A DNA stretch of 64,000 bases from Candidatus Latescibacterota bacterium. GTDB lineage: Bacteria > Latescibacterota > UBA2968 > UBA8231. Under the pieces are notes generated by a model. That model had not been told where the DNA came from, searched no databases, and worked only from the letters and a program-made list of their open reading frames with translations. This document shows, in pieces, positions 2,231 through 30,817 of this stretch (position 1 is its first letter; each line of letters starts with the position of its first letter). A program made the translations under genes and the position numbers. Location of the stretch: contig JAYZFI010000031.1 of assembly GCA_036336855.1 (NCBI GenBank), positions 8,240 through 72,239 on the forward strand, read 5' to 3'.

Positions 2231-3640
2231 TCATTCGCTAGCATAACTCTGGCGACTGGCGGCCAGTTTGTTCAGGCCGTTGAGGGCAGCGACCCGGTAA
2301 CCCTCGGCAAAGGTGGGGTAGTTGAAGATCTGATCGATGAAGTAGTGGGCTCGGGCATGGAAGTCGATGGCTACTTGGCCGATGTGGACCAGCTCGGTCG
2401 CATTGGTGCCAATGATGTGCACTGCGAGTACTTCCAGGGTCTCCGCGTGGAAGATGAGCTTGAACATGCCCGTGCTGTCACCGGCGATGGGTCCTCGGCC
2501 CAGTTCGTAATAGTAGGCCAGGCCCACCTGAAAATGCACCCCCTGATTTTCTAGCTCCTCTTGCGTGGGACCGATCCCTGCGACTTCCGGGATCGTGTAG
2601 ATCCCGTATGGGAAGAATTCGGGGAACTGCCCAGTCTTGAGAGAGAACGCGTTGCGCACGGCAAGGCGGCCCTGCTCCATGGCGATGGAGGCCAGGCTGC
2701 CTCTACCGATGACGTCTCCTGCTCCATAGACCCTGGGATTGTCCGATTCGAACAGGGCGTTGACGGCAATGTACCCGTTCTCGTCGATGTTCACTCCGGC
2801 GCGCTCCAATCCTAGTTCTTCTACGTTCGCCTGCCGGCCCAGGGCATAAAACAGGCAGTCAGCGCGAAATACTTCTCCCGTCGTCGTTTCCGCCTCGGCG
2901 CCGCCGTCCGCCCCCCGTCCGATGCGGACGATGGTGCGACCCATCTGCAATTGCACCCCTATCGCTTCGATGTAATCTCCGAACTTACGTCCCACCTCCG
3001 CATCGAGATGCGACAGGGGCCGATCCGCCCTGTCGATCAGGATGACGGCCGTGCCCAGGGCGGCAAACATGGTGGCATACTCCGAACCGATGACGCCGCC
3101 GCCAAGTACGAGCATGGACTGGGGCAACTGCTTCAGCCGCAAGAGGCGATCGGAATCGAGGATGGTGTCCTGGTCGAAGGGCACATCTCCCGGATTGCGG
3201 GGGCGGGATCCTGTAGCGACGAGGAAACGCTCTGCACGGATCTCGTGAGTCTGGTTCCTCTTGTCGTCGCAGACGGTCATTGTATCCCGATCAATAAAGC
3301 GCGCCGCCCCGGAGACATACCGGATGTCGTTCTTGTCAAACTGGCGGGCGATCAGGCAATTCTGGTCCTCGACCACTCGCCTCACGCGGTGGTCGAGATC
3401 CTCGATGGAGATCTGCTCTGCCGCCGCTGAGGAGCGGTCGCAAAAGCCCCTGAAATCGAGAATAGCTTCGCGCAGGGTCTTGGAGGGAATCGTGCCCTGG
3501 TTAAGACAGGCGCCTCCAAGTTGGTTGAGGCGGTCGACGACGAGCGCCCGCCGGCCCACCTTGGCCGCTTGGATGGCACCCTTCTGCCCCGCGGGTCCGG
3601 CGCCGATGACGGCGAGATCTGTCTCTATTCTCTCGACCAC
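2231..3640 (-). CDS. sthA: Soluble pyridine nucleotide transhydrogenase-like flavoprotein (SthA family), paralog 2
   Basis: 469 aa. FAD fold DLAVIGAGPAGQKGA. GGACLNQGTIPSK has a single Cys and Thr in place of the second redox Cys, as in E. coli SthA GGGCTHWGTIPSK. C-terminal FNYPTFAEGYRVAALNGLNKL closely matches the SthA C-terminus. Confidence 0.7.
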   Translation of the reverse strand: MVERIETDLAVIGAGPAGQKGAIQAAKVGRRALVVDRLNQLGGACLNQGTIPSKTLREAILDFRGFCDRSSAAAEQISIEDLDHRVRRVVEDQNCLIARQFDKNDIRYVSGAARFIDRDTMTVCDDKRNQTHEIRAERFLVATGSRPRNPGDVPFDQDTILDSDRLLRLKQLPQSMLVLGGGVIGSEYATMFAALGTAVILIDRADRPLSHLDAEVGRKFGDYIEAIGVQLQMGRTIVRIGRGADGGAEAETTTGEVFRADCLFYALGRQANVEELGLERAGVNIDENGYIAVNALFESDNPRVYGAGDVIGRGSLASIAMEQGRLAVRNAFSLKTGQFPEFFPYGIYTIPEVAGIGPTQEELENQGVHFQVGLAYYYELGRGPIAGDSTGMFKLIFHAETLEVLAVHIIGTNATELVHIGQVAIDFHARAHYFIDQIFNYPTFAEGYRVAALNGLNKLAASRQSYASE

Positions 3641-19288: not shown

Positions 19289-20452
19289 TCAGGCGCTGGC
19301 CCGCATAGGCATCATCAGGTAGAAGTAGTCTTCCCCATCCAGCTGCTCGGCGGGCCGCACCACGGCGGCGGTGACTGAATCGCGCAAGTCGATGGTGACT
19401 TCGTCTGATCCGACCTTACGCAGGATCTCCATCAGATAGTGGGAATTGTAAGCGACATCGAGGCCCTCGCTGCTGTACTCGGCGGGGATAACCTCGCGCG
19501 CTTCGCCGCCGATCTCCTGACTCGATGCAGTGAGCTCGACCTTGCCGCTCTGCAAGCCGAGCCGCACTTGATGGGTGTACGAGCTGGAGAGGATGGAGAC
19601 ACGGCGCACGGTAGGTAGCAGCTGATCGACGGCGATAGTGAGTTGTTTGTCGTTTTCGCGGGGGATGACCTGATCGTAGTCGACATAGGGTCCCTCGATG
19701 AGTCGCGAAAACAACTGGGTGTCACCAGCCTGAAACAGCACTTGACTTTCGCCGATCACGGCCCGCGTGAGCCCATCGGCGGATTCAAGCAGTTTGAGCA
19801 GCCGTGAACAAACCTGTGGTGGCAGGATAATTTCGGCGGAGCCGTCACCAGTACCCTCACCTCCGTTCCAGTTTCGCTGGAACTTCGCCAACCGCGAGCC
19901 ATCGGTGGCAACCATAGCCATGAACTCACGCTCGATACGCCATAACACGCCGGTGAGCACGGGTCGGGTCTCGTCCCGAGAGACCGCGAAGCTCGTCTTG
20001 TCGATCATCGTCTTCAACAGTTCGCCGTCAAGGGCGGAGCCGCCGGTGAAATCAATGGTCAACCCGTCCAACAACTGAGGGATGTCGGGAAACTCGTCGG
20101 GTGGCGTTGCCGCCAGCGAGTAACGGCCTTCGCCGCTGTTGCCCTGGCCGAGCCTCCCGGATAGGGTCAGGCGTCCGTCTTCCAGCGACAGGTGAAGGTC
20201 CGCTTCCGGCCACTCTCGGGTGATCTCGGCAAGGGTACGAGCGGGAACGGTGATGCGACCCGGGATTTCCACTTTGGAGATTACCCGAGAACGGATGGAA
20301 AGATCGAGGTTGGTCGCCGATAGGGTCAGCCAATCCCCCTCCGCCTCAAGGAGAATATTCGACAGCACCGGCTGGGCCGGCTTCGAGGCGACGGCATCGA
20401 GAACTATGTTGGCACCGCGCCACAACTCATTTCGGTCTACGGTCAGCTTCAT
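19289..20452 (-). CDS. dnaN: DNA polymerase III beta sliding clamp
   Basis: Trimmed to the ATG at 20452 (MKLTVDRNEL...; track ORF starts at 20500). Typical DnaN N-terminus KPAQPVLSNILLEA and C-terminus YLMMPMR. Confidence 0.95.
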   Translation of the reverse strand: MKLTVDRNELWRGANIVLDAVASKPAQPVLSNILLEAEGDWLTLSATNLDLSIRSRVISKVEIPGRITVPARTLAEITREWPEADLHLSLEDGRLTLSGRLGQGNSGEGRYSLAATPPDEFPDIPQLLDGLTIDFTGGSALDGELLKTMIDKTSFAVSRDETRPVLTGVLWRIEREFMAMVATDGSRLAKFQRNWNGGEGTGDGSAEIILPPQVCSRLLKLLESADGLTRAVIGESQVLFQAGDTQLFSRLIEGPYVDYDQVIPRENDKQLTIAVDQLLPTVRRVSILSSSYTHQVRLGLQSGKVELTASSQEIGGEAREVIPAEYSSEGLDVAYNSHYLMEILRKVGSDEVTIDLRDSVTAAVVRPAEQLDGEDYFYLMMPMRASA

Positions 20453-20690
20453 AAAGTGCAGGCGGGCCTCTGAACGCTCACAGAGGGTCACTAAGACCAT
20501 GACCGGCCTGAGAGGTCATCGCTGGGAAATCGGTGGACGAGGGATTCAGGGGCGCTTCCGGGGCTTCTGAGCGCCTAAAGTTGTCGTCAGCGCACAAACA
20601 CACGAACAACCAATAAAGTAGGTAAATAGAGGGCCTATGTCAATCCGTCCGGGTGTCGTGATTGGACTGCATAGACGCCGGTGAAAAATT

Positions 20691-20740
20691 CATTTAGTTT
20701 AATATTAACAATATGTTATAGATTAATATATAACTTAGTT
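20691..20740. other. AT-rich block 1 (candidate DNA unwinding element)
   Basis: catttagtttaatattaacaatatgttatagattaatatataacttagtt: 7 G/C in 50 nt by my count (14% GC). Confidence 0.55.
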
Positions 20741-20771
20741 GGTGGAGTAATCAGCACGGAGTATAGGGAAG

Positions 20772-20854
20772 CTATCCACATCACAACTACACGAACTCTA
20801 ATACTAGAAAATACCTGTTCTAGGAAATTGTAGTTGTAGTAGTGGTGTGGATAG
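20772..20854. promoter_or_regulatory. Convergent DnaA-box pair with inward trinucleotide runs
   Basis: CTATCCACA at 20772-20780 (+) and its exact reverse complement TGTGGATAG at 20846-20854. The 65-bp core contains the palindrome CTAGAA-N8-TTCTAG (20804-20823). Box-proximal runs read TCA-CAA-CTA-CAC (+) and CCA-CTA-CTA-CAA-CTA-CAA (-). Confidence 0.6.
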
Positions 20855-20870
20855 GTGGAGAAGTCCATGA

Positions 20871-20940
20871 ATGAGATAAATCAGGATGTTATAAACGATT
20901 TATTAACAATTGTTTATATGAGTATTTTGAAAAATAGATC
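20871..20940. other. AT-rich block 2 (candidate DNA unwinding element)
   Basis: atgagataaatcaggatgttataaacgatttattaacaattgtttatatgagtattttgaaaaatagatc: 15 G/C in 70 nt by my count (~21% GC). Confidence 0.5.
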
Positions 20941-20951
20941 GAGTTATACCG

Positions 20952-21088
20952 CGTGGATAAAGTTCTTGGAAGACCCAACCTTTTCCACCGGTGTGAACGC
21001 AAGCCGGAGCCATGTTGTTCTGTCCACACAGTTGTCCACATCCGATCTGCACGTTATCCACAGATAATGTGGATGAAATTGTGGACAA
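20952..21088. promoter_or_regulatory. DnaA-box cluster adjacent to the dnaA 3' end
   Basis: CGTGGATAA 20952-20960; TTGTCCACA 21032-21040; perfect TTATCCACA 21054-21062; TGTGGATGA 21068-21076; TGTGGACAA 21080-21088. Also a weaker CTGTCCACA at 21020-21028. Confidence 0.8.
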
Positions 21089-21106
21089 CAATCTCCATTT
21101 ACAGAC

Positions 21107-22564
21107 TCATTGCCCTGTCAATTGCTGAATCTCCTCAGAAAGTGAGTCGACGACGTTGGCGAAGGAGGGGTCTTCGTCGCACTTCTTGTTGACGGTCTGA
21201 ACGGCATGTACCACGGTGCTGTGGTCTCGGTTGCCGAAGTGCAAGCCGATCACTTTCAGCGGCGATTTGGTGAAGCGCTTGGCCAGAAACATTGCGATCT
21301 GTCTAGGAGCCGCCACCTCCTGACGCCGGGTCTTCCCAATGAGCAGCTCGGGAGTTAGATCGAAGTGCCGGGCGACCGTCTTTTGGATTCCCTCGATGCT
21401 GACTTGAGAGGAAGACTGAGCAGAGCTGCGTTCTTGGACGATGCGGCGAGCTGCATCGAGACTCAACTCAACTTGATTCACTGCGCAGTAGGCCATGATG
21501 TGGTTGAGCGCACCTTCGAGCTCCCGGATGTTTGAGCTGATGTAATTGCCGAGGAAGTTGGCCACCTCGTCGGTGAGCTGGATTCCGTTGACCTCCGCCT
21601 TCTTCTGTAGGATGGCGATTCGGGTCTCCAGGTCTGGGGGCTCGATGCTGGTGACCAAGCCCCACTGGAAGCGCGAGACCAAACGCTCTTCCAGCCCTTC
21701 CAGCTCACCAGGCGGGCTGTCGCAGGTCATGACGATTTGCTTGCCGTTCTGGTGCAGGGTGTTGAAAGTGTGGAAAAATTCGTTCTGGGTCTGCTCGCCT
21801 CGGATGAGAAATTGAATGTCGTCGACCAGGAGCACGTCGGCGCTGCGGTAGAGGCGCTGAAATTCAGAGGACGTCTGCTGGCGCAGAGACTCAATGAAGT
21901 CGCTCATGAACTTCTCCGAGGGCACGTAAATAACGCGACGACCCGTCTCCTGCGATAACGCATGATGTCCAATGGCCTGCAACAGATGGGTCTTGCCGAG
22001 ACCGACGCCGCCGTAGATGACCAAGGGGTTGAACTGCGTCTTACCCGGAGACTTCGCCACCGCTTGGGCAGCGGCGTGGGCGAAGCGATTGCCCTCTCCG
22101 ACGATGAAGGTGGTGAAGACGTAGCGTTCGTTGAGAGGCATGTACAGCAGGGCGCCATTGCCCGACGCCTCTTCACGGTAACCGAGATCGAGAGTGCCCT
22201 GCTCCTGCTCCTGCGCCAGGGCGGCTGTGTCGGCCGCGGCCGCCGCAGCGCCAGCATCGCTATTGTTGACAGTTGCCGCCGGGGCGCCCGCTAGCGGCAG
22301 AGGCCCCGCCGCATCCTCGGCGACGGCGAAGACGACGTTCGGCTGCAGGCCGGCTTCTTCCTCCACCACGGCTTGGATGAGAGCGAGGAAATTGCTCTCA
22401 ACGAAGTGGGCGAAGTAGGCGCTGCTGACTTCGATCTCGAGAGATTCGGCGTCGAACTGACGCACGGTGGTGGGACGGAACCAGGTGTTGAAGCTCTGAG
22501 CGCGGACGCGTCTCTCGATATTGAGCAGACAGCGTGCCCACAACTCCTGGATATCCTGCGACAT
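21107..22564 (-). CDS. dnaA: Chromosomal replication initiator protein DnaA
   Basis: Trimmed to the ATG at 22564 (MSQDIQELWARCL...; track ORF starts at 22660). AAA+ Walker A GGVGLGKTHLL, box VII, and a C-terminal DnaA-box-binding domain (HFGNRDHSTVVHA). Ala-rich domain II linker. Confidence 0.95.
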   Translation of the reverse strand: MSQDIQELWARCLLNIERRVRAQSFNTWFRPTTVRQFDAESLEIEVSSAYFAHFVESNFLALIQAVVEEEAGLQPNVVFAVAEDAAGPLPLAGAPAATVNNSDAGAAAAAADTAALAQEQEQGTLDLGYREEASGNGALLYMPLNERYVFTTFIVGEGNRFAHAAAQAVAKSPGKTQFNPLVIYGGVGLGKTHLLQAIGHHALSQETGRRVIYVPSEKFMSDFIESLRQQTSSEFQRLYRSADVLLVDDIQFLIRGEQTQNEFFHTFNTLHQNGKQIVMTCDSPPGELEGLEERLVSRFQWGLVTSIEPPDLETRIAILQKKAEVNGIQLTDEVANFLGNYISSNIRELEGALNHIMAYCAVNQVELSLDAARRIVQERSSAQSSSQVSIEGIQKTVARHFDLTPELLIGKTRRQEVAAPRQIAMFLAKRFTKSPLKVIGLHFGNRDHSTVVHAVQTVNKKCDEDPSFANVVDSLSEEIQQLTGQ

Positions 22565-22684
22565 GGGGGGCGACCAAGAGTAGGGAAGCGTGGGGAATTG
22601 AAGGGGCGCTAGGGTAGACAACCGGCTAGGCCGAGTCAAGGCGGAATGGACGGCGCACACGCTCTGAGGAGCGACCTATACTGA

Positions 22685-22713
22685 TTGACAGAAAAAAGAT
22701 TCCGCAATAGCTT
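22685..22713 (+). promoter_or_regulatory. Candidate sigma-70-type promoter for rpmH-rnpA-yidD-yidC
   Basis: TTGACA (22685-22690)-N17-TAGCTT (22708-22713), 79 nt upstream of the rpmH GTG. Nearly identical in layout to the rplU promoter candidate. Confidence 0.4.
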
Positions 22714-22791
22714 GTACCCTCTTATCTCGGTCTCATAGGAGCGCATGGACCGCCAGTATCTGCGCGTGCCAAAAACCAAGGCAATCCTGAA

Positions 22792-22926
22792 GTGAAGCGT
22801 ACCTTCCAACCCAGCCGGCGGCGGAGACGCAACAAACACGGCTTCCGTCGCCGCATGCGCACTCCCGGAGGCCGGGCCATCATTGCCCGCCGCCGCCGCC
22901 GGGGCCGCAAGCGCCTGGCCGTCTGA
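22792..22926 (+). CDS. rpmH: 50S ribosomal protein L34
   Basis: Not in the ORF track because it is under 60 aa. GTG start. The translation (M)[43 protein letters not shown] is a textbook L34. Located upstream of rnpA. Confidence 0.93.
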
Positions 22927-22956
22927 GCATTTCTCAGCTACATCTGGGTCCGCCCG

Positions 22957-23205
22957 GTGCCATGGATCAAGGGTGACACCCTTTGGATTCGGTCCGGGCA
23001 AGAGGATTCTGGGCTCATCCTCGTGCTCCGCAAGTCGTTGGGAAAGGCAGTGGTGCGAAATCGTCTCAAGAGGCGGCTTCGCCACATCTGCCGCCACATT
23101 GAGCACCCCGGTAGCCTGGTTGTGCTCCCCCGCACGCGTGCCGTGAACACCCCCTTCCGACTTCTTGAGTGTGAGCTGCGCGAACTGGTGGAGAGAGTAG
23201 AGTGA
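22957..23205 (+). CDS. rnpA: Ribonuclease P protein component (annotated from the first canonical start; N-terminus uncertain)
   Basis: RNR motif region GKAVVRNRLKRRLRHICRH. GTG at 22957 is the first canonical start after the in-frame rpmH stop and gives only 82 aa, versus roughly 110-130 typical. See the finding on this junction. Confidence 0.8.
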   Translation: MPWIKGDTLWIRSGQEDSGLILVLRKSLGKAVVRNRLKRRLRHICRHIEHPGSLVVLPRTRAVNTPFRLLECELRELVERVE

Positions 23206-23411
23206 AGTCGTTCCTGCTCGTGCTTGTGCGCACCTATCAACTGGTGCTCTCCCCCCATCTCCCGAGGGCATGCCGCTACCATCCCACCTGCTCTGAGTAC
23301 GCCGCTGAGGCCATCCATCGCTATGGCGCGTTGGGTGGGCTGCGCCGCGCGGTCGGACGACTGTTGCGATGCCGCCCCTTCGGCGCATATGGGTACGACC
23401 CGGTAGACTGA
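23202..23411 (+). CDS. yidD: Membrane protein insertion efficiency factor YidD
   Basis: 69 aa. YQLVLSPHLPRACRYHPTCSEYAAEAIHRYG matches the YidD signature. GTGA overlap with the rnpA stop. Confidence 0.92.
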   Translation: MKSFLLVLVRTYQLVLSPHLPRACRYHPTCSEYAAEAIHRYGALGGLRRAVGRLLRCRPFGAYGYDPVD

Positions 23412-23414
23412 AGC

Positions 23415-25091
23415 ATGGACGACAAGCGAACCCTTCTCGCTTTCCTGGTGGTGGCGATCATTTTCCTGCTCATGCCGCACTACTACGAGTGGTTGAACGG
23501 CCCTATGCCGGAGCCGGTGCAGGAGCAGGTCGAGTCCATGCCCGCGGAGCGAGAAAAGTCGGCCTCCGAGCCCGCACCGCTTGCCGAGCGGACGACGGAG
23601 CTCGGTTTGGCGCCCCCCGGCGCTCCGGGTCCAGCGACCATTCTTCCCGAGCCGATGACGGAGACCTTTGTCGACATCACGACCCCGCGGCAGACGCTGC
23701 GCTTGTCCAGCGTGGGGGGGGCCCTGGTTTCGGCGACCCTATTGCGCTACGCCGATGGAGTTGGCGATCCAGTAGAGCTCGTGCCGGACGGGGCTCGGGG
23801 ATTACTGGTCGAGATGCGGGCTGAGACCGGCGGAGGCGATCTCGATCTTAGCCAGGTCTCGTTTGTGCCCGACCGCGAGAGTCTGCGCCTCGGCGAAGGC
23901 GACGAGGGCAGTGTCACCCTGCGAGCCGATCTCGGCCAGGGACGGTTCGTGGAGAAAATTCTGCGCGTGAGCGCCGATAGCTACGGCGCCGAGTTGACTC
24001 TGCGCTGTGCCGGATTCGACGACCGCATCGTTGCCTTTTTGCACTGGCGCGGCGGTATTGCCCTCGCGGAGCGCGACCGTGAGGTCGACCTGCAGGCCAT
24101 GAAGGTCATGACCTACCTCAACGAGAGCACGGAGGATTTGCAGCTCGACGGCGAGGAGAGCGAGCGCTTCGAGGAGCGCGGGGACGTAAGTTGGGCGGCG
24201 ATCCGTAACAAATACTTCCTCGTCGCCCTCTCACCCCTCGAGGGTGGCCGCTACCGGGTCAATCTGGAAGGGCGTCCGGCGAACCGGCCCCCGCAAAGCG
24301 AGTACGATTTCGCCATTGGGAAGCGGATGGAGCGAGGCGTGCAGAACTGGCCGCTGGCTCTCTACATCGGCCCCCTAGATATCGAAGAGCTCGATGTCTA
24401 CGGGCGCGATCTCGAACAGGCCATGGATCTCGGCTGGTCGGTGATCCGCCCGATTGCCAAGGTTCTGCTGAAGGTGTTAACGGCGGCCCACCAGGTCATC
24501 CCCAATTATGGGTGGGTCATCGTGCTGTTTGGCGTGGTCGTGAAGGCCCTCGTCTACCCGCTGACCCGTAAGACCTACGAGTCGACCGCAAAAATGCAGG
24601 CTCTGCAGCCGAAGGTAGCGGTTCTGAAAGAGAAGTACAAGAATGACAAGCAACGGCTGGGTCAAGCGCAAATGCAGCTGTATCGCGACGAAGGGGTCAA
24701 TCCTCTAAGCAGCTGTCTTCCCCTGCTTTTGCAGATGCCGATTTTTTTCGCTCTCTACCAGGTGTTTTCCAGCACCATCGAGTTGCGGCAAGCCCCTTTC
24801 ATTCTGTGGATCGACGATCTCTCCGTCCCCGACGAGATCCTCATCGGAGGCTTCGGCCTGCACGTACTGCCGCTGCTGATGTCCATCGCTATGTATTTCC
24901 AGTCCAAGATGACGATGAAGGACCCAAATCAGGTGGCGCTCGTTTACGTGATGCCTGTCGTTATGGTCTTTATCATGTGGAACTTCTCATCGGGTCTGGT
25001 CCTTTACTGGACGGTCTTCAACGTTCTTCAAGTCGCACAGCAGATCGTCACTAACAGAGGCACGATCGCCGAGCCGACACCCAAGGTGTAA
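23415..25091 (+). CDS. yidC: Membrane protein insertase YidC
   Basis: 558 aa. N-terminal TM, large periplasmic domain, and a conserved C-terminal core (YGWVIVLFGVVVKALVYPLT, MQALQPK, NPLSSCLPLLLQMPIFFALY). Confidence 0.95.
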   Translation: MDDKRTLLAFLVVAIIFLLMPHYYEWLNGPMPEPVQEQVESMPAEREKSASEPAPLAERTTELGLAPPGAPGPATILPEPMTETFVDITTPRQTLRLSSVGGALVSATLLRYADGVGDPVELVPDGARGLLVEMRAETGGGDLDLSQVSFVPDRESLRLGEGDEGSVTLRADLGQGRFVEKILRVSADSYGAELTLRCAGFDDRIVAFLHWRGGIALAERDREVDLQAMKVMTYLNESTEDLQLDGEESERFEERGDVSWAAIRNKYFLVALSPLEGGRYRVNLEGRPANRPPQSEYDFAIGKRMERGVQNWPLALYIGPLDIEELDVYGRDLEQAMDLGWSVIRPIAKVLLKVLTAAHQVIPNYGWVIVLFGVVVKALVYPLTRKTYESTAKMQALQPKVAVLKEKYKNDKQRLGQAQMQLYRDEGVNPLSSCLPLLLQMPIFFALYQVFSSTIELRQAPFILWIDDLSVPDEILIGGFGLHVLPLLMSIAMYFQSKMTMKDPNQVALVYVMPVVMVFIMWNFSSGLVLYWTVFNVLQVAQQIVTNRGTIAEPTPKV

Positions 25092-25184
25092 TTTCATCAG
25101 CGACCTGAAAGTGCCCTCCGGATGAGTCACGCTTAATAGGCATGACACCTTGTCCGATGAAGGACACTGCTGTCGAGTCCACCC

Positions 25185-26549
25185 TTGGCCGCCCTGTCTA
25201 ATACCGACACGATCGTCGCCGTTGCCAGCCCCCGAGGGGAGGGCGGGATCGGGGTGATCCGCCTCAGCGGCCCCGCCGCCGCCGCGACTGCCGCCCAGCT
25301 CTTCCACAGTGCCAAGACAATCGGTCACCGGCCCCACCGGGTAGAATACGGCAAGGTCCGCGACGCTCAGGGACGCGAAATCGACACCGCTTTGGCCTGG
25401 TTCCTGCCCGGTCCTAAGAGCTACACCGGTGAGGACACCGTTGAGATCTCTACTCACGGCAGCGAAGCCGTTCTCCAGGCCGTGCTAGAGACCGCGGTCG
25501 AGTCAGGCGCTCGGATGGCCGAGGCAGGAGAGTTTACGCGCCGAGCTTTCATCAATGGCAAGCTCGACCTCCCGCAAGCAGAAGCCGTCGTCGATCTGAT
25601 CCGCGCGGGGTCACGGTCGGGTCTGATGACCGCCTACGGAGCGGCAAGCGGAGGCCTGTCCAAGGTCGTGGCGGAGGTGAAAGCAGAAATCGTGGCCGCC
25701 CTTGCCCTCCTGGAAGTAGGGCTCGACTTTGTGGACGAGGATGTCGACACCCCATCCATGGCTCAGGTCGACGCCCACGTCCTTGCAGTGGAGCGGCGGG
25801 CCCGGGAACTCGTGGAGAGCTTCGCCGGAGCGCGGCGACGTCTACAGGGCTGGCAAGTAGCCATCGTCGGCCGGCCCAATGTCGGCAAGTCCACGCTGCT
25901 GAATGCCCTATTGAGCGAAGAACGGGCCATTGTCAGCGAGACCCCCGGGACCACCCGAGATGTGGTAGAAGGACGGGTGATCTGGGCGGGCGAGAGTTTG
26001 AGGCTGGTCGATACAGCAGGCCAGCGTCGGAATCCCGGACCGGTAGAGGCGGAGGGCATTCGACGGGCCCGACAGCGCGCCGAGGAAGCGGATCTCGTCC
26101 TCGTGGTTTTAGATCGGTCCCGGGAGTGGAGCTCTGAGGACGAGTGGGTGATTGGCGCGGCGGGTAACTCACCGCGGCTCTTAGTGCTCAACAAGGCCGA
26201 TCTCTCGCCGCGGTTGCAGCTACCCGCCTCACTGGAGGAACCGGAATTCGTCGCGGTATCCGCCACCACAGGGTCTGGTCTCGAGGGCTTGCGCTCGCGA
26301 ATCTTGCGCCACACGCGGTCCATGAAACCGGAGGCGGCGGTCAGTTTGCTTCGCGATCGGCATCGGGAGCGGATGTCGAGTGTCGCCGATCGGGCCTCTC
26401 GGGCTCGCGAACAGCTCTCAGCGCTGACACCGGAGATCGCGGCCGCCGAGCTTCGGAACGCGTTGGAGGATGTGGGAGAGCTGTTGGGAGAAGAGGTGGA
26501 GGAGGCCGTCCTCGACCGGATCTTCGCCGAGTTCTGCATCGGCAAGTGA
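25185..26549 (+). CDS. mnmE: tRNA modification GTPase MnmE
   Basis: 454 aa, TTG start. N-terminus DTIVAVASPRGEGGIGVIRLSG, G-domain GRPNVGKSTLLN / DTAG / NKAD, and the C-terminal FCIGK motif. Confidence 0.93.
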   Translation: MAALSNTDTIVAVASPRGEGGIGVIRLSGPAAAATAAQLFHSAKTIGHRPHRVEYGKVRDAQGREIDTALAWFLPGPKSYTGEDTVEISTHGSEAVLQAVLETAVESGARMAEAGEFTRRAFINGKLDLPQAEAVVDLIRAGSRSGLMTAYGAASGGLSKVVAEVKAEIVAALALLEVGLDFVDEDVDTPSMAQVDAHVLAVERRARELVESFAGARRRLQGWQVAIVGRPNVGKSTLLNALLSEERAIVSETPGTTRDVVEGRVIWAGESLRLVDTAGQRRNPGPVEAEGIRRARQRAEEADLVLVVLDRSREWSSEDEWVIGAAGNSPRLLVLNKADLSPRLQLPASLEEPEFVAVSATTGSGLEGLRSRILRHTRSMKPEAAVSLLRDRHRERMSSVADRASRAREQLSALTPEIAAAELRNALEDVGELLGEEVEEAVLDRIFAEFCIGK

Positions 26550-27235
26550 GGGCAGTGTTCCACGTGGAACAGCCCGATCCCGATGCGAGCCGCCTTCCCG
26601 GAATGTTTCACGTGAAACAATCGGGCCCCGCGGAGGACATTCGGCAGATCCTGGAGCAGTTCTGTCCGGATTGTGCCGATCGGCACCGCGCGTGGCAGCA
26701 TAGTCTGGAGCGCTACTGCCGCCTGCTTCATCAGTGGACGAAGCGCGTGAACCTCATCTCCCCCCGAGATCGGCCCTGCATTGTCTCCCACCACATTGCG
26801 CCCGCTCTCGCCTTCCGAACCTTGGCCCGTGCTGTGGATCACGAGCGCATCGTCGATGTCGGATCCGGCGCCGGACTGCCAGGGATCCCCCTCTCTATAA
26901 CCCTTCCCCAATCTCACGTCGTGCTCGTCGAGAGCCGCCGCCGCCGGGCCCATTTTCTGCGCCGTGTTGTCGCCGAACTCGAACTGAGTGCGGAGGTCGT
27001 CCATGGACGCGTAGAAAAGTGGATCCCTCTGTGTCCCGCGAACCTTGTCGTAGCCCGGGCGGTGGCCGCGCCTGATGAGCTCCGCGAGCTCACCCGCACC
27101 TGCCGGCACCCGGCGGGGCACATCCTGACCACCCTTCCTCCGGGTGTCGCCAGACGGGGTCCCTCTGCGTCGATCGCGCTGTGTGAGCAGCGATGGCGGG
27201 GTGGTCAGGGTCGTTGCGCCTTGTTTCGTGGATGA
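26546..27235 (+). CDS. rsmG: 16S rRNA (guanine527-N7)-methyltransferase RsmG
   Basis: 229 aa from a GTG overlapping the mnmE stop (GTGA). An alternative ATG at 26603 gives the common MFHVKQ start. SAM-binding DVGSGAGLPGIPL. Follows mnmE directly, with no mnmG between. Confidence 0.85.
   Translation: MRAVFHVEQPDPDASRLPGMFHVKQSGPAEDIRQILEQFCPDCADRHRAWQHSLERYCRLLHQWTKRVNLISPRDRPCIVSHHIAPALAFRTLARAVDHERIVDVGSGAGLPGIPLSITLPQSHVVLVESRRRRAHFLRRVVAELELSAEVVHGRVEKWIPLCPANLVVARAVAAPDELRELTRTCRHPAGHILTTLPPGVARRGPSASIALCEQRWRGGQGRCALFRG
26556..26571. promoter_or_regulatory. parS-like centromere site 1
   Basis: TGTTCCACGTGGAACA is a perfect 16-bp palindrome. It has one mismatch (position 11, G for A) to the widespread parS consensus TGTTNCACGTGAAACA. 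Confidence 0.7.
26604..26619. promoter_or_regulatory. parS centromere site 2
   Basis: TGTTTCACGTGAAACA is an exact match to the parS consensus TGTTNCACGTGAAACA and a perfect palindrome. Confidence 0.85.
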
Positions 27236-27239
27236 GTTG

Positions 27240-27442
27240 TGTGGATAGCGACGGACATCCGGTCACTTTCCCATAAGATATCCACAGGCATCCACTGGAT
27301 CATTGTGGATATGACGTACAGGTCAAAATCCGCTCCTGCAACTCTTTAAGGCACTCTGCAATAGCCAAAGAGGTCCTTGTCCACAGATTGATTTGGCCCT
27401 GGTGAATAACTTCATCCACAACGGGGGATAAGGTGTGGATAT
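27240..27442. promoter_or_regulatory. Second DnaA-box cluster (six boxes within 1 mismatch in 203 bp)
   Basis: TGTGGATAG 27240-27248; ATATCCACA 27278-27286; TGTGGATAT 27304-27312; TTGTCCACA 27377-27385; TCATCCACA 27412-27420; TGTGGATAT 27434-27442. Lies in the 313-bp spacer after rsmG. Confidence 0.8.
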
Positions 27443-27469
27443 CCTTGTGGAAGATCCTCCCCCGCGATC

Positions 27470-27499
27470 TTGCTCGGTTTCCCGGTCTGGTCGTATATT
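27470..27499 (+). promoter_or_regulatory. Candidate promoter for the phosphatidyltransferase-tmk-protease genes
   Basis: TTGCTC (27470-27475)-N18-TATATT (27494-27499), 50 nt upstream of the GTG at 27549 and immediately downstream of the DnaA-box cluster. Confidence 0.35.
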
Positions 27500-27548
27500 C
27501 GACTTCGACGCGTCCCAATAGTCTCCTCTCGCCGTCTTTCGGGACATC

Positions 27549-28154
27549 GTGATCATATCCCAGTTCAAGAGTAGAGCGACCGCCGTTCTGCGTCCCTTGG
27601 CGCAGCTCTTTATCCGCGTCGGCTTCCGACCCGACTGGTTGACGCTGATCGGACTGCTGTTGAACGTCGTAGCCACCGGTGCCTTTTTCATGGGCCACCT
27701 GCGGTGGGGAGCGGTCATCATGGGCTTCGCCGGTCTCTGTGACATTCTCGATGGCCAGGTCGCCCGAGAGGGACGTAGCGAGACCAAGTTCGGCGCCCTT
27801 CTCGACTCCACCACAGATCGCTACTCCGAGATCTTCATCTATTTCGGCATTGGCGCCTACCTGGTGCGCGGTGGGGAGTGGATCGTCAGCGGAATCCTGT
27901 TTTTTGCGCTAGCCGGATCCCTCATGGTCAGTTACGTCAGGGCTCGAGCAGAGGGGCTTGGGGAAGACTGTAAGGTCGGGTTCATGCAGCGCCCTGAGCG
28001 CATGGCTGCTCTGGCCTTCGGAGGCCTGTGTGGACATGAGGGGCTCGTATTTGTCCTCGTTGTTCTCGCCGTGACCACGAACTACACGGTGGTGGAACGC
28101 CTCGCCCACATTCGCAACAAGCTCAATGCCGTCCAGCCACCGGCCTCGGCGTAG
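27549..28154 (+). CDS. CDP-alcohol phosphatidyltransferase family protein
   Basis: 201 aa, multi-TM. The exact family signature D-x2-D-G-x2-A-R-x8-G-x3-D-x3-D is present as DILDGQVAREGRSETKFGALLDSTTD. Confidence 0.85.
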   Translation: MIISQFKSRATAVLRPLAQLFIRVGFRPDWLTLIGLLLNVVATGAFFMGHLRWGAVIMGFAGLCDILDGQVAREGRSETKFGALLDSTTDRYSEIFIYFGIGAYLVRGGEWIVSGILFFALAGSLMVSYVRARAEGLGEDCKVGFMQRPERMAALAFGGLCGHEGLVFVLVVLAVTTNYTVVERLAHIRNKLNAVQPPASA

Positions 28155-28277
28155 CGGTGATCCCCATATCATCCGCTTCCGCCCCGCTTATGTGTCCTCG
28201 GCGGTATCGCCCTTGATCGTGATCCAAACACGATGTTCGGGGGGCGTATTGCTGCCGAGCTCGAGTCACGTCCACAG

Positions 28278-28925
28278 ATGAGAGGCGTCTTCATCGCCTT
28301 CGAAGGGATCGATGGCAGTGGATCCACCACCCAGTGTGCCCATCTGTACCATCGTCTAAAGGATGACGCGGTAGATGTCGTCCTCACAAGAGAGCCGGGA
28401 GGAACGCCCCTGGGAGAGCGGTTGCGAGAAGCCGTACTCTCGCCTGAGCTTGATGACGTCGATTCTTTGGCTGAGCTGTTAATCATAGTCGCAGCTCGGA
28501 GGCAGCACGCGCAACAGCTCATTGTTCCTGCACTGGCGAGAGGAAAGCATGTAATCAGCGAGCGATATGCGGCGTCATCTGTAGCCTATCAGGGGGCCGG
28601 TCGTGGGGTGGAGCGAAACATTGTTGATCGCGTCAATGAGTTGGCGGTGGGCGATTGCTCGCCCGACATCGTGATTCTTCTCGATCTCAACGTCGAGCTG
28701 GCTTTGGGTCGCCGGAAGGGCCAACGGGAAGACCGCATTGAGGCAGCAGGGGTCGAATTTCAGATGCGGGTGAGAGAGTCGTATTGCGTCCAGGCTGCAG
28801 CGGATCCAGAGAAATGGTGGCTCCTCGACGCTACGCAGGATGAACAGAAGTTGTCAGAGGTCATTTACAACGGTCTGCGAGAGCGGTTCCCAACCCTCGT
28901 TTCCGATGTCGCACAGCAGGAATGA
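28278..28925 (+). CDS. tmk: Thymidylate kinase
   Basis: Trimmed to the ATG at 28278 (MRGVFIAFEGIDGSGSTTQ; track ORF starts at 28233). P-loop EGIDGSGSTTQ, TREPGGT, and the DRY-like ISERYAASSVAYQG. Confidence 0.9.
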   Translation: MRGVFIAFEGIDGSGSTTQCAHLYHRLKDDAVDVVLTREPGGTPLGERLREAVLSPELDDVDSLAELLIIVAARRQHAQQLIVPALARGKHVISERYAASSVAYQGAGRGVERNIVDRVNELAVGDCSPDIVILLDLNVELALGRRKGQREDRIEAAGVEFQMRVRESYCVQAAADPEKWWLLDATQDEQKLSEVIYNGLRERFPTLVSDVAQQE

Positions 28926-30817
28926 AGAAGAAGAGGCGTGCCACCCGAGTCGGCCCTCTGCAAGCCACGCGGATTGCCGCTTTTCTTACACTTCTGATTC
29001 ACCCGGTGGTCACGTTCGCGGTTCCGGAGGATCCCTATGAGCAGGTCCATCGCAACTGGGAGCGCCTGGGTGCGGTGTACGGTCGTGTGATCGAGCACTA
29101 TTACGACGAAGTCGATCATGACACCATCATGCGCGCCGCCATTGATGGCATGCTGCGACAGTTGGATCCGTACAGCCAATTCTTTGACGAGGAAGGGGTG
29201 CGCCAGCTACGCCAGGACACCACCGGAAAATTCGCCGGTTTAGGAATCACGGTGGGGATCAAGGACCACTATCCGGTTGTGATCGCCCCCATAGAGGGCA
29301 CCCCGGCGGACCGGGCTGGGCTGCGACCCGGGGACCAGATCGTCGCCATCGAGGGCACCAGTACCCTTGGCATGTCCCTGGAAGACGTTGTGAATGCTCT
29401 GCGCGGCGAGCAGGGCACCCGCGCACGTATCACCTTGTCGAGACTGGGACTAACGCCGGATTGGGACGCCGTCATCGAGCGCGAGATCATCATCATCCGC
29501 AGCGTTGCCGTCTCGGACATCATCCGTCCGGGCATCGGCTACATCAGCATGCGGCAGACGCGGTTCTCCGAAGATACCGCACAGGAGGTCGAAGAAGCCT
29601 TGCGCGGCTTGATCTCGGAGGGGGCCATGTCGCTGCTGCTTGACCTGCGCGGAAACCCGGGAGGTCTGCTGGGACAAGCGGCGGAGGTCGCGGATCTCTT
29701 CCTTCCAAAGGGAGCGCCCATCGTATCAGTGCGCGAGCGCGCCGACGAGCGTCACGAAACCAAGGTCTCGCAGAGCAAGCCCGTCGCTGCTGAACTGCCC
29801 CTCGTCGTGCTCATCGACGGCGGAAGCGCCTCCGCGGCGGAGATCGTAGCGGGCGCGGTACAGGACAACGACCGCGGCGTGGTGGTAGGAACGACCTCTT
29901 TCGGCAAAGGCTCGGTGCAGACCATCTTCGATCTGCGCGATCGCGAACAGGCGGCACTCAAACTGACTACAGCCCTCTACTACACGCCTTCAGGACGCAG
30001 CATCCATCGTACCGGTCTCAATGCCAGCGGCTACCTCACGCAGATTCCCTTTGGTGAGGTTAATCTGCCGGCGAGCCTGCTGTTTCACATCATCCTACAT
30101 GCGCCCACTCCTGAAGCGGCGCTGGACCGACTGCGTGCCCGATTTGACCTCGAAGAAAGCAGTGCGCGTACGATCTTGTCGACATCTTTGGAAGACTTGG
30201 TGGGGCAGCGCCACCTTGCCGATGACGAGCCCACCGTCGAGGTGCCACCGCAAGCTTACCAGACCCGGTCGGGACGGCAGGTTCTCGGGGGCGGCGGCAT
30301 CACTCCCGACGTCGTCGTCGACACACAGACACCGCCGCTGTTCGTGCAGGACCTCTACCGGCTGCGGGTATTTTTCGACTTCATCGTCGAGCACATGGGC
30401 AACGGTGAAGTGACTCCGGCCGAGTCTGTGGGTACGGTGGACGAGGAGATGATGGCCGCCTTCCGACGCTACCTGCCGCGCTCGGCGCTAGCCGATATGC
30501 GGCGGCGGGAAGACGAACGTGAACTGGAGGCGCTGCGCACGCGCGTGCAGGAGTCGGGTCGGGACAGGGTAGTAGTCGCCGCTATCGACAGCCTGGATGC
30601 GGTGATCAATCGCCGCTGGTCGGACGAGATCTCCCTCACCGACGAGGCTGAGCTCTTTGTACGCTCCGCTTTGCAGCGCGAGCTCGTCCTGCGGCTGGAA
30701 GGCCACAGCGCCAGCCTACTGGTCGAACTCGATGGCGATCCGCAGGTGGAGATGGCACTAGCGCTGCTTGAAGAACTCGACAGCTACCGCGAACTGCTGC
30801 GCAGCGGCGACGATTGA
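28922..30817 (+). CDS. S41 family C-terminal processing peptidase with PDZ domain and long C-terminal extension
   Basis: 631 aa; ATGA overlap with the tmk stop. Signal-like N-terminus, PDZ (GLGITVG...GTPADRAGLRPGDQIVAIEG), and the S41 catalytic region LVVLIDGGSASAAEIVAGAVQD...GKGSVQ. Confidence 0.85.
   Translation: MKKKRRATRVGPLQATRIAAFLTLLIHPVVTFAVPEDPYEQVHRNWERLGAVYGRVIEHYYDEVDHDTIMRAAIDGMLRQLDPYSQFFDEEGVRQLRQDTTGKFAGLGITVGIKDHYPVVIAPIEGTPADRAGLRPGDQIVAIEGTSTLGMSLEDVVNALRGEQGTRARITLSRLGLTPDWDAVIEREIIIIRSVAVSDIIRPGIGYISMRQTRFSEDTAQEVEEALRGLISEGAMSLLLDLRGNPGGLLGQAAEVADLFLPKGAPIVSVRERADERHETKVSQSKPVAAELPLVVLIDGGSASAAEIVAGAVQDNDRGVVVGTTSFGKGSVQTIFDLRDREQAALKLTTALYYTPSGRSIHRTGLNASGYLTQIPFGEVNLPASLLFHIILHAPTPEAALDRLRARFDLEESSARTILSTSLEDLVGQRHLADDEPTVEVPPQAYQTRSGRQVLGGGGITPDVVVDTQTPPLFVQDLYRLRVFFDFIVEHMGNGEVTPAESVGTVDEEMMAAFRRYLPRSALADMRRREDERELEALRTRVQESGRDRVVVAAIDSLDAVINRRWSDEISLTDEAELFVRSALQRELVLRLEGHSASLLVELDGDPQVEMALALLEELDSYRELLRSGDD

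Follow-up and report, generated by a model that had tools for sequence, protein, structure and literature searches.

A DnaA-box cluster beside the conserved promoter of a tmk-containing operon near the probable origin of a Latescibacterota bacterium

The rsmG-side cluster and the promoter behind it

The window examined here, i.e., the whole stretch of 64,000 nucleotides taken from an assembly of a Candidatus Latescibacterota bacterium (GCA_036336855.1, contig JAYZFI010000031.1), harbors a dense cluster of predicted binding sites for the replication initiator DnaA (DnaA boxes) in the intergenic spacer between rsmG and a gene for a CDP-alcohol phosphatidyltransferase. The surrounding region carries, in this order, gyrB, a DUF721-like gene, recF, dnaN, a 606-bp AT-rich spacer, and dnaA (gyrB, recF, dnaN, and dnaA on the minus strand), which are followed on the opposite strand by rpmH, a small open reading frame (ORF) region, yidC, mnmE, rsmG, the cluster, the transferase gene, tmk, and a gene for an S41/PDZ protease.

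Counting as a box any 9-mer within one mismatch of TTATCCACA and as a weak box any with two mismatches, eight sites (six strong and two weak) fall within 228 bp of the 313-bp spacer (Table 1). The six strong ones, which span 27240–27442, had already been reported with the same positions and strands in a reading made from the sequence alone, as had the length of the spacer between rsmG (26546–27235) and the GTG start of the transferase gene at 27549. The most upstream weak box overlaps the stop codon of rsmG and stands in tandem with the box at 27240 across a 4-bp gap, while the outer boxes of the distal module are convergent and 17 bp apart. The promoter candidate of the sequence-only reading is likewise present and consists of TTGCTC (27470–27475), an 18-nt spacer, and TATATT (27494–27499); the closest weak box ends 15 bp and the last strong box 27 bp upstream of its -35 element. 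A generic sigma-70 scan did not call this promoter and returned one weak minus-strand site only, and the call is therefore based on conservation instead (see below). An Rfam search of 20300–28300 at a permissive threshold gave two sub-threshold chance matches, none of them in the spacer.

Table 1. Features of the dnaA–rsmG region and of the box cluster (window coordinates; sites within a module follow the module).
Feature	Position	Strand	Remarks
Probable true oriC, dnaA-dnaN spacer	20501–21106		Seven boxes, two blocks of ~10–20% GC
dnaA	21107–22660	-	
Two parS sites	26556–26619		5' end of rsmG, 0.6 kb upstream of cluster
Weak DnaA box TCATCCACG	27227–27235	-	2 mismatches, CCAC core intact
DnaA box CTATCCACA	27240–27248	-	1 mismatch
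Distal module	27278–27312		Two outer boxes and degenerate middle box
Distal outer box ATATCCACA	27278–27286	+	
Distal middle box GCATCCACT	27288–27296		Degenerate, 3 mismatches
Distal outer box ATATCCACA	27304–27312	-	
DnaA box TTGTCCACA	27377–27385	+	Extra box where relatives have an AT-rich block
IHF-core-like 13-mer AATCAATCTGTGG	27381–27393	-	1 mismatch to WATCAANNNNTTR; a hint only, motif not significant family-wide
DnaA box TCATCCACA	27412–27420	+	
Proximal module	27434–27454	-	Strong box, 3-bp gap, weak box
Proximal strong box ATATCCACA	27434–27442	-	
Proximal weak box TCTTCCACA	27446–27454	-	2 mismatches, CCAC core intact
Promoter TTGCTC-N18-TATATT	27470–27499	+	Rests on conservation
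CDP-alcohol phosphatidyltransferase gene (operon gene 1)	27549–28154	+	Profile scores below curated cut-offs
tmk (dTMP kinase)	28233–28925	+	
S41 C-terminal processing peptidase with PDZ domain	28922–30817	+	Start overlaps tmk stop by 4 bp

The assembly is a metagenome-assembled genome of 3.57 Mb (56 contigs, 61% GC) that is ~79% complete. It contains 355 boxes (0.1 per kb) as compared to 281 matches of the reversed control word, so that box frequency is overall near random, and yet 22 boxes are present in the window, where shuffled versions have 5.2 ± 2.0. At least three boxes per 250 bp occur at two sites of the assembly only, namely the dnaA-dnaN spacer and the rsmG-side spacer, with six each; elsewhere, just six pairs of boxes lie closer than 120 bp. 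The density of the cluster, which the sequence-only reading had noted, is thus far beyond chance (~300-fold above background), although the statement that there are two such clusters is limited to the sequence in hand because of the incompleteness of the assembly. With at least four boxes packed densely into intergenic DNA, outside yet near the unwinding origin, the cluster has the sequence layout of a DnaA-box cluster of the Bacillus subtilis type.

Among the products of the operon, the transferase scored best against phosphatidylinositol-phosphate (PIP) and archaetidylinositol-phosphate synthases (140–165 bits, below the cut-offs) and not against PgsA, which suggests that the lineage may possess an inositol (or related polyol) phospholipid.

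Conservation and synteny among relatives

Relatives were gathered by searches with the transferase and with DnaA. In the family of the window (f1), the 300 bp upstream of the orthologous transferase gene hold at least two boxes in 18 of 23 genomes and at least three in 12 of them, whereas 0.055 boxes per 300 bp would be expected from the background of 0.18 per kb in the same loci. This conservation holds although the GC content of the family genomes spans 43 to 70%. Box numbers vary from 0 to 6 per genome, the six of the window being the joint maximum together with locus L043. The distance from dnaA to the transferase gene is 5–7 kb throughout, which makes the site origin-proximal in every family genome fetched, and the gene order from recF to the S41 protease is kept at 12 of 12 fetched loci (rsmG was without a match in G002 and G018).

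When the family sequences are aligned, the spacer falls into three parts. At the distal end, two convergent boxes are spaced by 16–18 bp and, in about half of the genomes, enclose a third; this module is the best-kept part of the cluster. It is followed by a block of 80–100 bp that is usually AT-rich and, at the proximal end, by one or two bottom-strand boxes, after which the promoter (cTTGC-N18-TATATT) begins within 6–45 bp. At nine loci (L043, L045, L049, L050, L053, L054, L055, L060, and L062), the nearest box lies 6–17 bp upstream of the -35 element. The leader from the promoter to the start codon measures 50–100 nt in the family. The promoter is in fact the best-kept non-coding feature of the region, being aligned in nearly all family genomes and recurring in the further families f2, f3, and f4 of the class. 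In other classes of the phylum, the transferase gene mostly comes right after a different conserved ORF, and neither the boxes nor a TTGC-N18-TATATT promoter are found, which points to the arrangement as an invention of this class.

Changes of the neighborhood allow the boxes to be assigned to one of their two flanks. In genus g19 (e. g., G033, G035, and G036), rsmG and the operon are ~3.5 kb apart, with other genes in between, and a five-box cluster stays at the operon promoter. The boxes of G040 (f4) are likewise located upstream of the operon gene, and in G030 three boxes are kept upstream of a transferase gene that is situated 330 kb from dnaA. Such cases of co-inheritance, to which G025 is the exception, indicate that the boxes are normally inherited with the operon promoter and not with rsmG. 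In G025, the operon lies 900 kb from dnaA and has kept its promoter and lost the boxes, while an oriC-type cluster of eight boxes (L094, C1 3608056–3608808; 72% identity to the cluster downstream of dnaA in its congeners) is found beyond rsmG and not after dnaA. A search for oriC with perfect boxes found no clusters in G025 and G030, and the GC skew of G030, sampled in 17 windows of 20 kb each and at four shorter loci, was noisy and did not reveal a switch.

Several peculiarities were encountered at these loci. G040 carries three tandem units of ~219 bp upstream of the transferase gene (L087, C3 ~2596–3148), each with three boxes (TTTTCCACA, TTATCCTCA, and TAATCCACA), which suggests that the box array was amplified in this lineage. 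Near both G025 sites, there is a 169-bp repeat with 95% identity (L094 11668–11835 and L090 1909–2077) that may mark a rearrangement. In g19 (L084–L086) as well as at L091, dnaN is not adjacent to dnaA, and the box cluster after dnaA is kept. In the window itself, mnmE and rsmG (25185–27235) are directly joined with a 4-bp overlap and lack mnmG (gidA) between them, unlike the usual mnmE/mnmG/rsmG string.

Apart from the two parS sites at the mnmE/rsmG junction (TGTTCCACGTGGAACA at 26556–26571 and TGTTTCACGTGAAACA at 26604–26619), the assembly contains essentially no good parS match. A pair spaced by 40–145 bp is kept at 12 of 12 family loci, and pairs or single sites occur at class-level loci (L072–L087). 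A ParB N-terminal domain (PF02195) was not detected in the 79%-complete assembly, nor do parAB genes follow rsmG.

The cluster and the probable origin

The two box clusters are separated by 6.2 kb and six genes (dnaA, rpmH, the small ORF region, yidC, mnmE, and rsmG) and differ markedly in their helical stability. The weakest 40-mer of the dnaA-dnaN spacer has 10% GC and a nearest-neighbor stability of -36.4 kcal/mol, which places it among the three least stable loci in the assembly. Its counterpart on the rsmG side reaches 40% GC and -49.8 kcal/mol, a value that is equaled or undercut at 726 loci of the assembly, and the block between the boxes has 40–48% GC. The remark of the sequence-only reading that the cluster has no extreme AT block comparable to that of the dnaA-dnaN spacer is thereby borne out: the cluster is without a DNA unwinding element (DUE) and is not an unwinding site. 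Trinucleotide runs such as GTAGTTGTAGTAG adjoin boxes in the dnaA-dnaN spacer, whereas none were seen at the boxes of 27227–27454 on inspection by eye only. Within the dnaA-dnaN spacer, the segment 20772–20854 contains two convergent CTATCCACA boxes with GTAGTTGT-type trinucleotide runs inside each and resembles a mirrored pair of box-plus-trio modules between two AT blocks. A duplication of oriC as the source of the second cluster was ruled out, as the two share box matches of 8–10 nt only.

Along the contig, cumulative G-C stays level between ~4 and 20 kb and climbs from ~19.8 kb onward, and from one cluster to the other, the net GC skew has already reached +0.03. A skew switch at or to the left of dnaA-dnaN would fit these values, if weakly; gene orientation is, however, a confounding factor, and the curve lacks the resolution to tell apart points 6 kb from each other. 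The rsmG-side cluster may serve as a warning to origin-prediction pipelines, since it is not the origin here. The central block of several relatives comes close in instability to the DUE of the respective oriC (-39.5 vs -39.0 kcal/mol in G007; similar in G002, G021, and g19), which suggests that the ancestral element was more origin-like than the copy in the window. A history as a vestigial origin or a part in the DnaA cycle is accordingly conceivable for the element.

Interpretation and known systems

The arrangement is, in our estimate, best explained by a DnaA-controlled operon promoter with incidental titration, a reading to which we assign a probability of roughly 0.55. The convergent distal module (27278–27312) and the proximal tandem pair (27434–27454) would each serve as a platform for DnaA oligomers, joined by DnaA on the additional boxes at 27227, 27240, 27377, and 27412, and the DNA between these two groups may be bound by a bending protein akin to IHF. 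Closely spaced tandem boxes (gaps of 3–4 bp in 27227/27240 and 27434/27446, and of 1–4 bp in relatives) would carry these oligomers. Located directly upstream of the promoter at 27470–27499, such an assembly would modulate transcription of the operon, so that expression of the PIP-synthase-like gene, tmk, and the S41 protease gene might track the level or nucleotide state of DnaA, and the supply of deoxythymidine triphosphate (dTTP) as well as envelope functions would thereby be tied to replication initiation. Since the site has as many good boxes as oriC at a distance of only 6 kb, it presumably also soaks up DnaA and may influence initiation timing. The effect on the operon could be activation or repression. 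For comparison, boxes upstream of the -35 element activate in Pseudomonas aeruginosa (PMC13438810), and according to passages in PMC13438810 and PMC2533591 the nrdAB boxes of Escherichia coli activate or repress depending on the level and nucleotide state of DnaA. A search of the literature for a link between DnaA boxes and thymidylate kinase (tmk) found no relevant paper.

A number of findings speak against this reading. No box within one mismatch was found in four of the 23 family genomes (G015, G020, G006, and G008), all of which keep the promoter; together with G025, where operon and promoter likewise persist 900 kb from dnaA with the boxes gone, they imply that the promoter works without DnaA. 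The only full loss of boxes by relocation is, moreover, the one in which the operon left the origin region, so that the boxes may matter only close to the origin, which would favor replication control over a transcriptional role. The boxes of the distal triple converge in f1 but diverge in g19, and a mechanism that depends on geometry is therefore not conserved between the families. The boxes lie outside the core promoter, making a direct effect on RNA polymerase not obvious. Lastly, no box cluster was found at any other promoter of the assembly, that of dnaA included, which gives no sign of DnaA being a general transcription factor in this genome; the spacer with the divergent dnaA and rpmH promoters (22661–22794) contains no box within one mismatch, so classical box-mediated autoregulation is not visible at the dnaA promoter either.

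Some of these findings sit more comfortably with the idea that the site primarily controls DnaA itself next to oriC, either as a titration sink or in the manner of the E. coli loci datA or DARS, with the promoter being incidental or resetting the complex. In a datA-like action, boxes and an IHF bend promote hydrolysis of DnaA-ATP, while head-to-head boxes promote release of ADP in a DARS-like one. The cluster is the sole one outside oriC in the assembly, matches oriC in box number 6.2 kb away from it, remains origin-proximal in every family genome fetched, and lost its boxes in G025 once the operon had left the origin region. On the complementary strand, the distal module of the family reads I> N5-7 <II N1-4 <III, which is the core topology of DARS1 and DARS2 (I> N5 <II N3 <III, as read from NC_000913; the 5-bp gap between I and II is confirmed in PMC6868365), and the exact N5/N3 register occurs at L043, L045, L048, and L051. 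The distal module of the window, however, has N7/N1 spacing and three mismatches in its middle box and thus departs from the DARS core, that of g19 is divergent rather than head-to-head, and Gln208 of E. coli DnaA, which is required for DARS activity and head-to-head interaction (PMC6868365), aligns with Ser in the DnaA of the window (38% identical overall). With an AT block framed by two groups of boxes, the overall layout resembles that of datA, which on direct reading consists of boxes, an IHF site (TAACCTATTGATA), and boxes, and CAATAGGTTA is common to L043, L062, and the IHF site of datA; the IHF-like site of L043 is, on the other hand, ~22 bp and 40–63 bp away from the boxes as compared to 56 and 84 bp in datA. 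A subset of genomes carries an IHF-core-like 13-mer in the central block, without mismatch at L052, L055, and L071 and with a single one in the window, L043, and L062. With boxes masked, the information content of the IHF-like motif came to 8.2 bits, while shuffled controls averaged 7.4 and reached up to 8.3; as the motif is not above this null, the IHF idea is kept only as a hint (motif search by expectation maximization with boxes unmasked merely refound the DnaA box, with an information content of 13.0 vs 8.1 in the null). Similarly, IHF models give higher scores than HU models for both DNABII proteins of the assembly, albeit below the NCBIfam cut-offs for IHF (92 vs 115 bits and 76 vs 111 bits); theirs are the only two DNABII (HU/IHF) genes found (G000, C2:10526–10792 and C52:178006–178272), and the protein encoded on C52 has an acidic, Ser/Pro-rich tail of ~40 residues. 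A tight and conserved coupling to a promoter is, furthermore, not a feature of datA. Primary control of DnaA thus remains the less probable account, albeit one to be taken seriously. A class-specific DnaA-cycle locus, at which IHF-like bending would switch DnaA between its ATP and ADP forms beside oriC and operon transcription would read out or reset the result, seems more doubtful still. If true, it would be the first datA/DARS-type system outside Proteobacteria and would directly couple initiator recycling to the synthesis of nucleotides and membrane lipid (an acidic inositol lipid).

A second origin or one half of a bipartite origin, at which DnaA would loop with the dnaA-dnaN cluster or open the DNA itself, appears very improbable. 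It would account for a box number equal to that of oriC and for the instability of the central block in G007, G002, G021, and g19, as well as for G030, which has no boxes at dnaA-dnaN and three boxes plus an AT block upstream of the orthologous gene, and oriCII of Pseudomonas is able to replicate a plasmid (PMC13438810). The block of the window, on the contrary, has a stability matched by hundreds of other loci and no trinucleotide runs that could be seen by eye, the skew has risen before the cluster is reached, and known bipartite origins are split by dnaA only (PMC3479198) rather than by 6.2 kb and six genes; in addition, four family genomes lack the boxes, and G025 is entirely without them and nevertheless has an oriC cluster. 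That the cluster arose by chance or is a relic in decay, and serves no function in this genome today, is hardest to credit: boxes do turn over among the family genomes, down to none in four of them, but a ~300-fold density that is unique in the assembly, a position kept in two families and further class-level genomes despite the wide range of GC contents, and the fact that the window is among the richest in boxes all argue for a function. With respect to the three options offered by the sequence-only reading, DnaA control of the tmk/lipid operon is consequently the best supported, given that the boxes abut a class-conserved promoter and follow it, not rsmG, when synteny changes. Titration or reactivation may coexist with it, as suggested by the sole non-oriC cluster being origin-proximal, even though the DARS fit fails for the window. 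A bipartite origin is disfavored for a cluster that has only 9-mers in common with oriC and no unwinding element.

Replication control is almost unknown beyond a few model bacteria, and the lineage studied here has no cultured member. A class in which a putative DnaA-binding array outside oriC, and seemingly no more than one, has been retained next to the origin and is wired to the promoter of a phospholipid synthase gene and tmk would offer a testable case of an initiator that coordinates dTTP supply and envelope synthesis with initiation. Among the known systems, datA, DARS1, and DARS2 of E. coli are alike in being DnaA-box loci outside the origin, and the box groups of datA flank an IHF site; in contrast to what is proposed for the present cluster, they have not been described as operators joined in this way to the promoter of an operon downstream. 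Bipartite origins such as oriC1-dnaA-oriC2 of Helicobacter pylori, the two sub-origins of which are separated by dnaA only (PMC3479198), or incAB/incC of B. subtilis similarly feature two box clusters in the origin region with one of them beside dnaA, but differ in the intervening distance and in the unwinding element that the present cluster lacks.

The closest analogues are the DnaA-box clusters of B. subtilis and oriCII of Pseudomonas, and by comparison the present cluster belongs with that kind, linked to a different operon. In B. subtilis, DnaA binds eight intergenic clusters, including one at jag-thdF, and modulates neighboring genes (Ishikawa et al. 2007, PMC2533591), while deletion of six clusters leads to early initiation (Okumura et al. 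2012, PMC3245932). These clusters are also dense, intergenic, and located outside but near the origin, and one of them even resides in the same rpmH...thdF(mnmE)-gid string. The neighboring gene differs, however, and six such clusters contrast with one in this assembly; moreover, the jag-thdF cluster is poorly kept even among Bacillus species, whereas the rsmG-side cluster is kept across a class. The chromosome of P. aeruginosa can do without oriCII (at the p1 promoter of gidAB-parAB) as an origin, and oriCII functions there as an operator that depends on DnaA (Wawrzyniak et al. 2026, PMC13438810). Like the present cluster, it is a second origin-like group of about five boxes a few kb from the dnaA-side origin on the gid/rsmG side, directly upstream of an operon promoter and kept across its family, so that the gammaproteobacterial gid-side analogy drawn by the sequence-only reading is apt as a positional parallel, if not as the duplication of origin-like signals of which it also spoke. 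The operon served (a PIP-synthase-like gene, tmk, and an S41 protease gene instead of gidAB-parAB) and the site (downstream of rsmG instead of upstream of gidA) are different, the lineage is unrelated and uncultured, and the plasmid-origin activity of oriCII is unlikely to be shared given that the window copy has no AT block. Summed up, the cluster would extend the theme of oriCI/oriCII and of DnaA-box clusters from Pseudomonas and Bacillus to a distant phylum.

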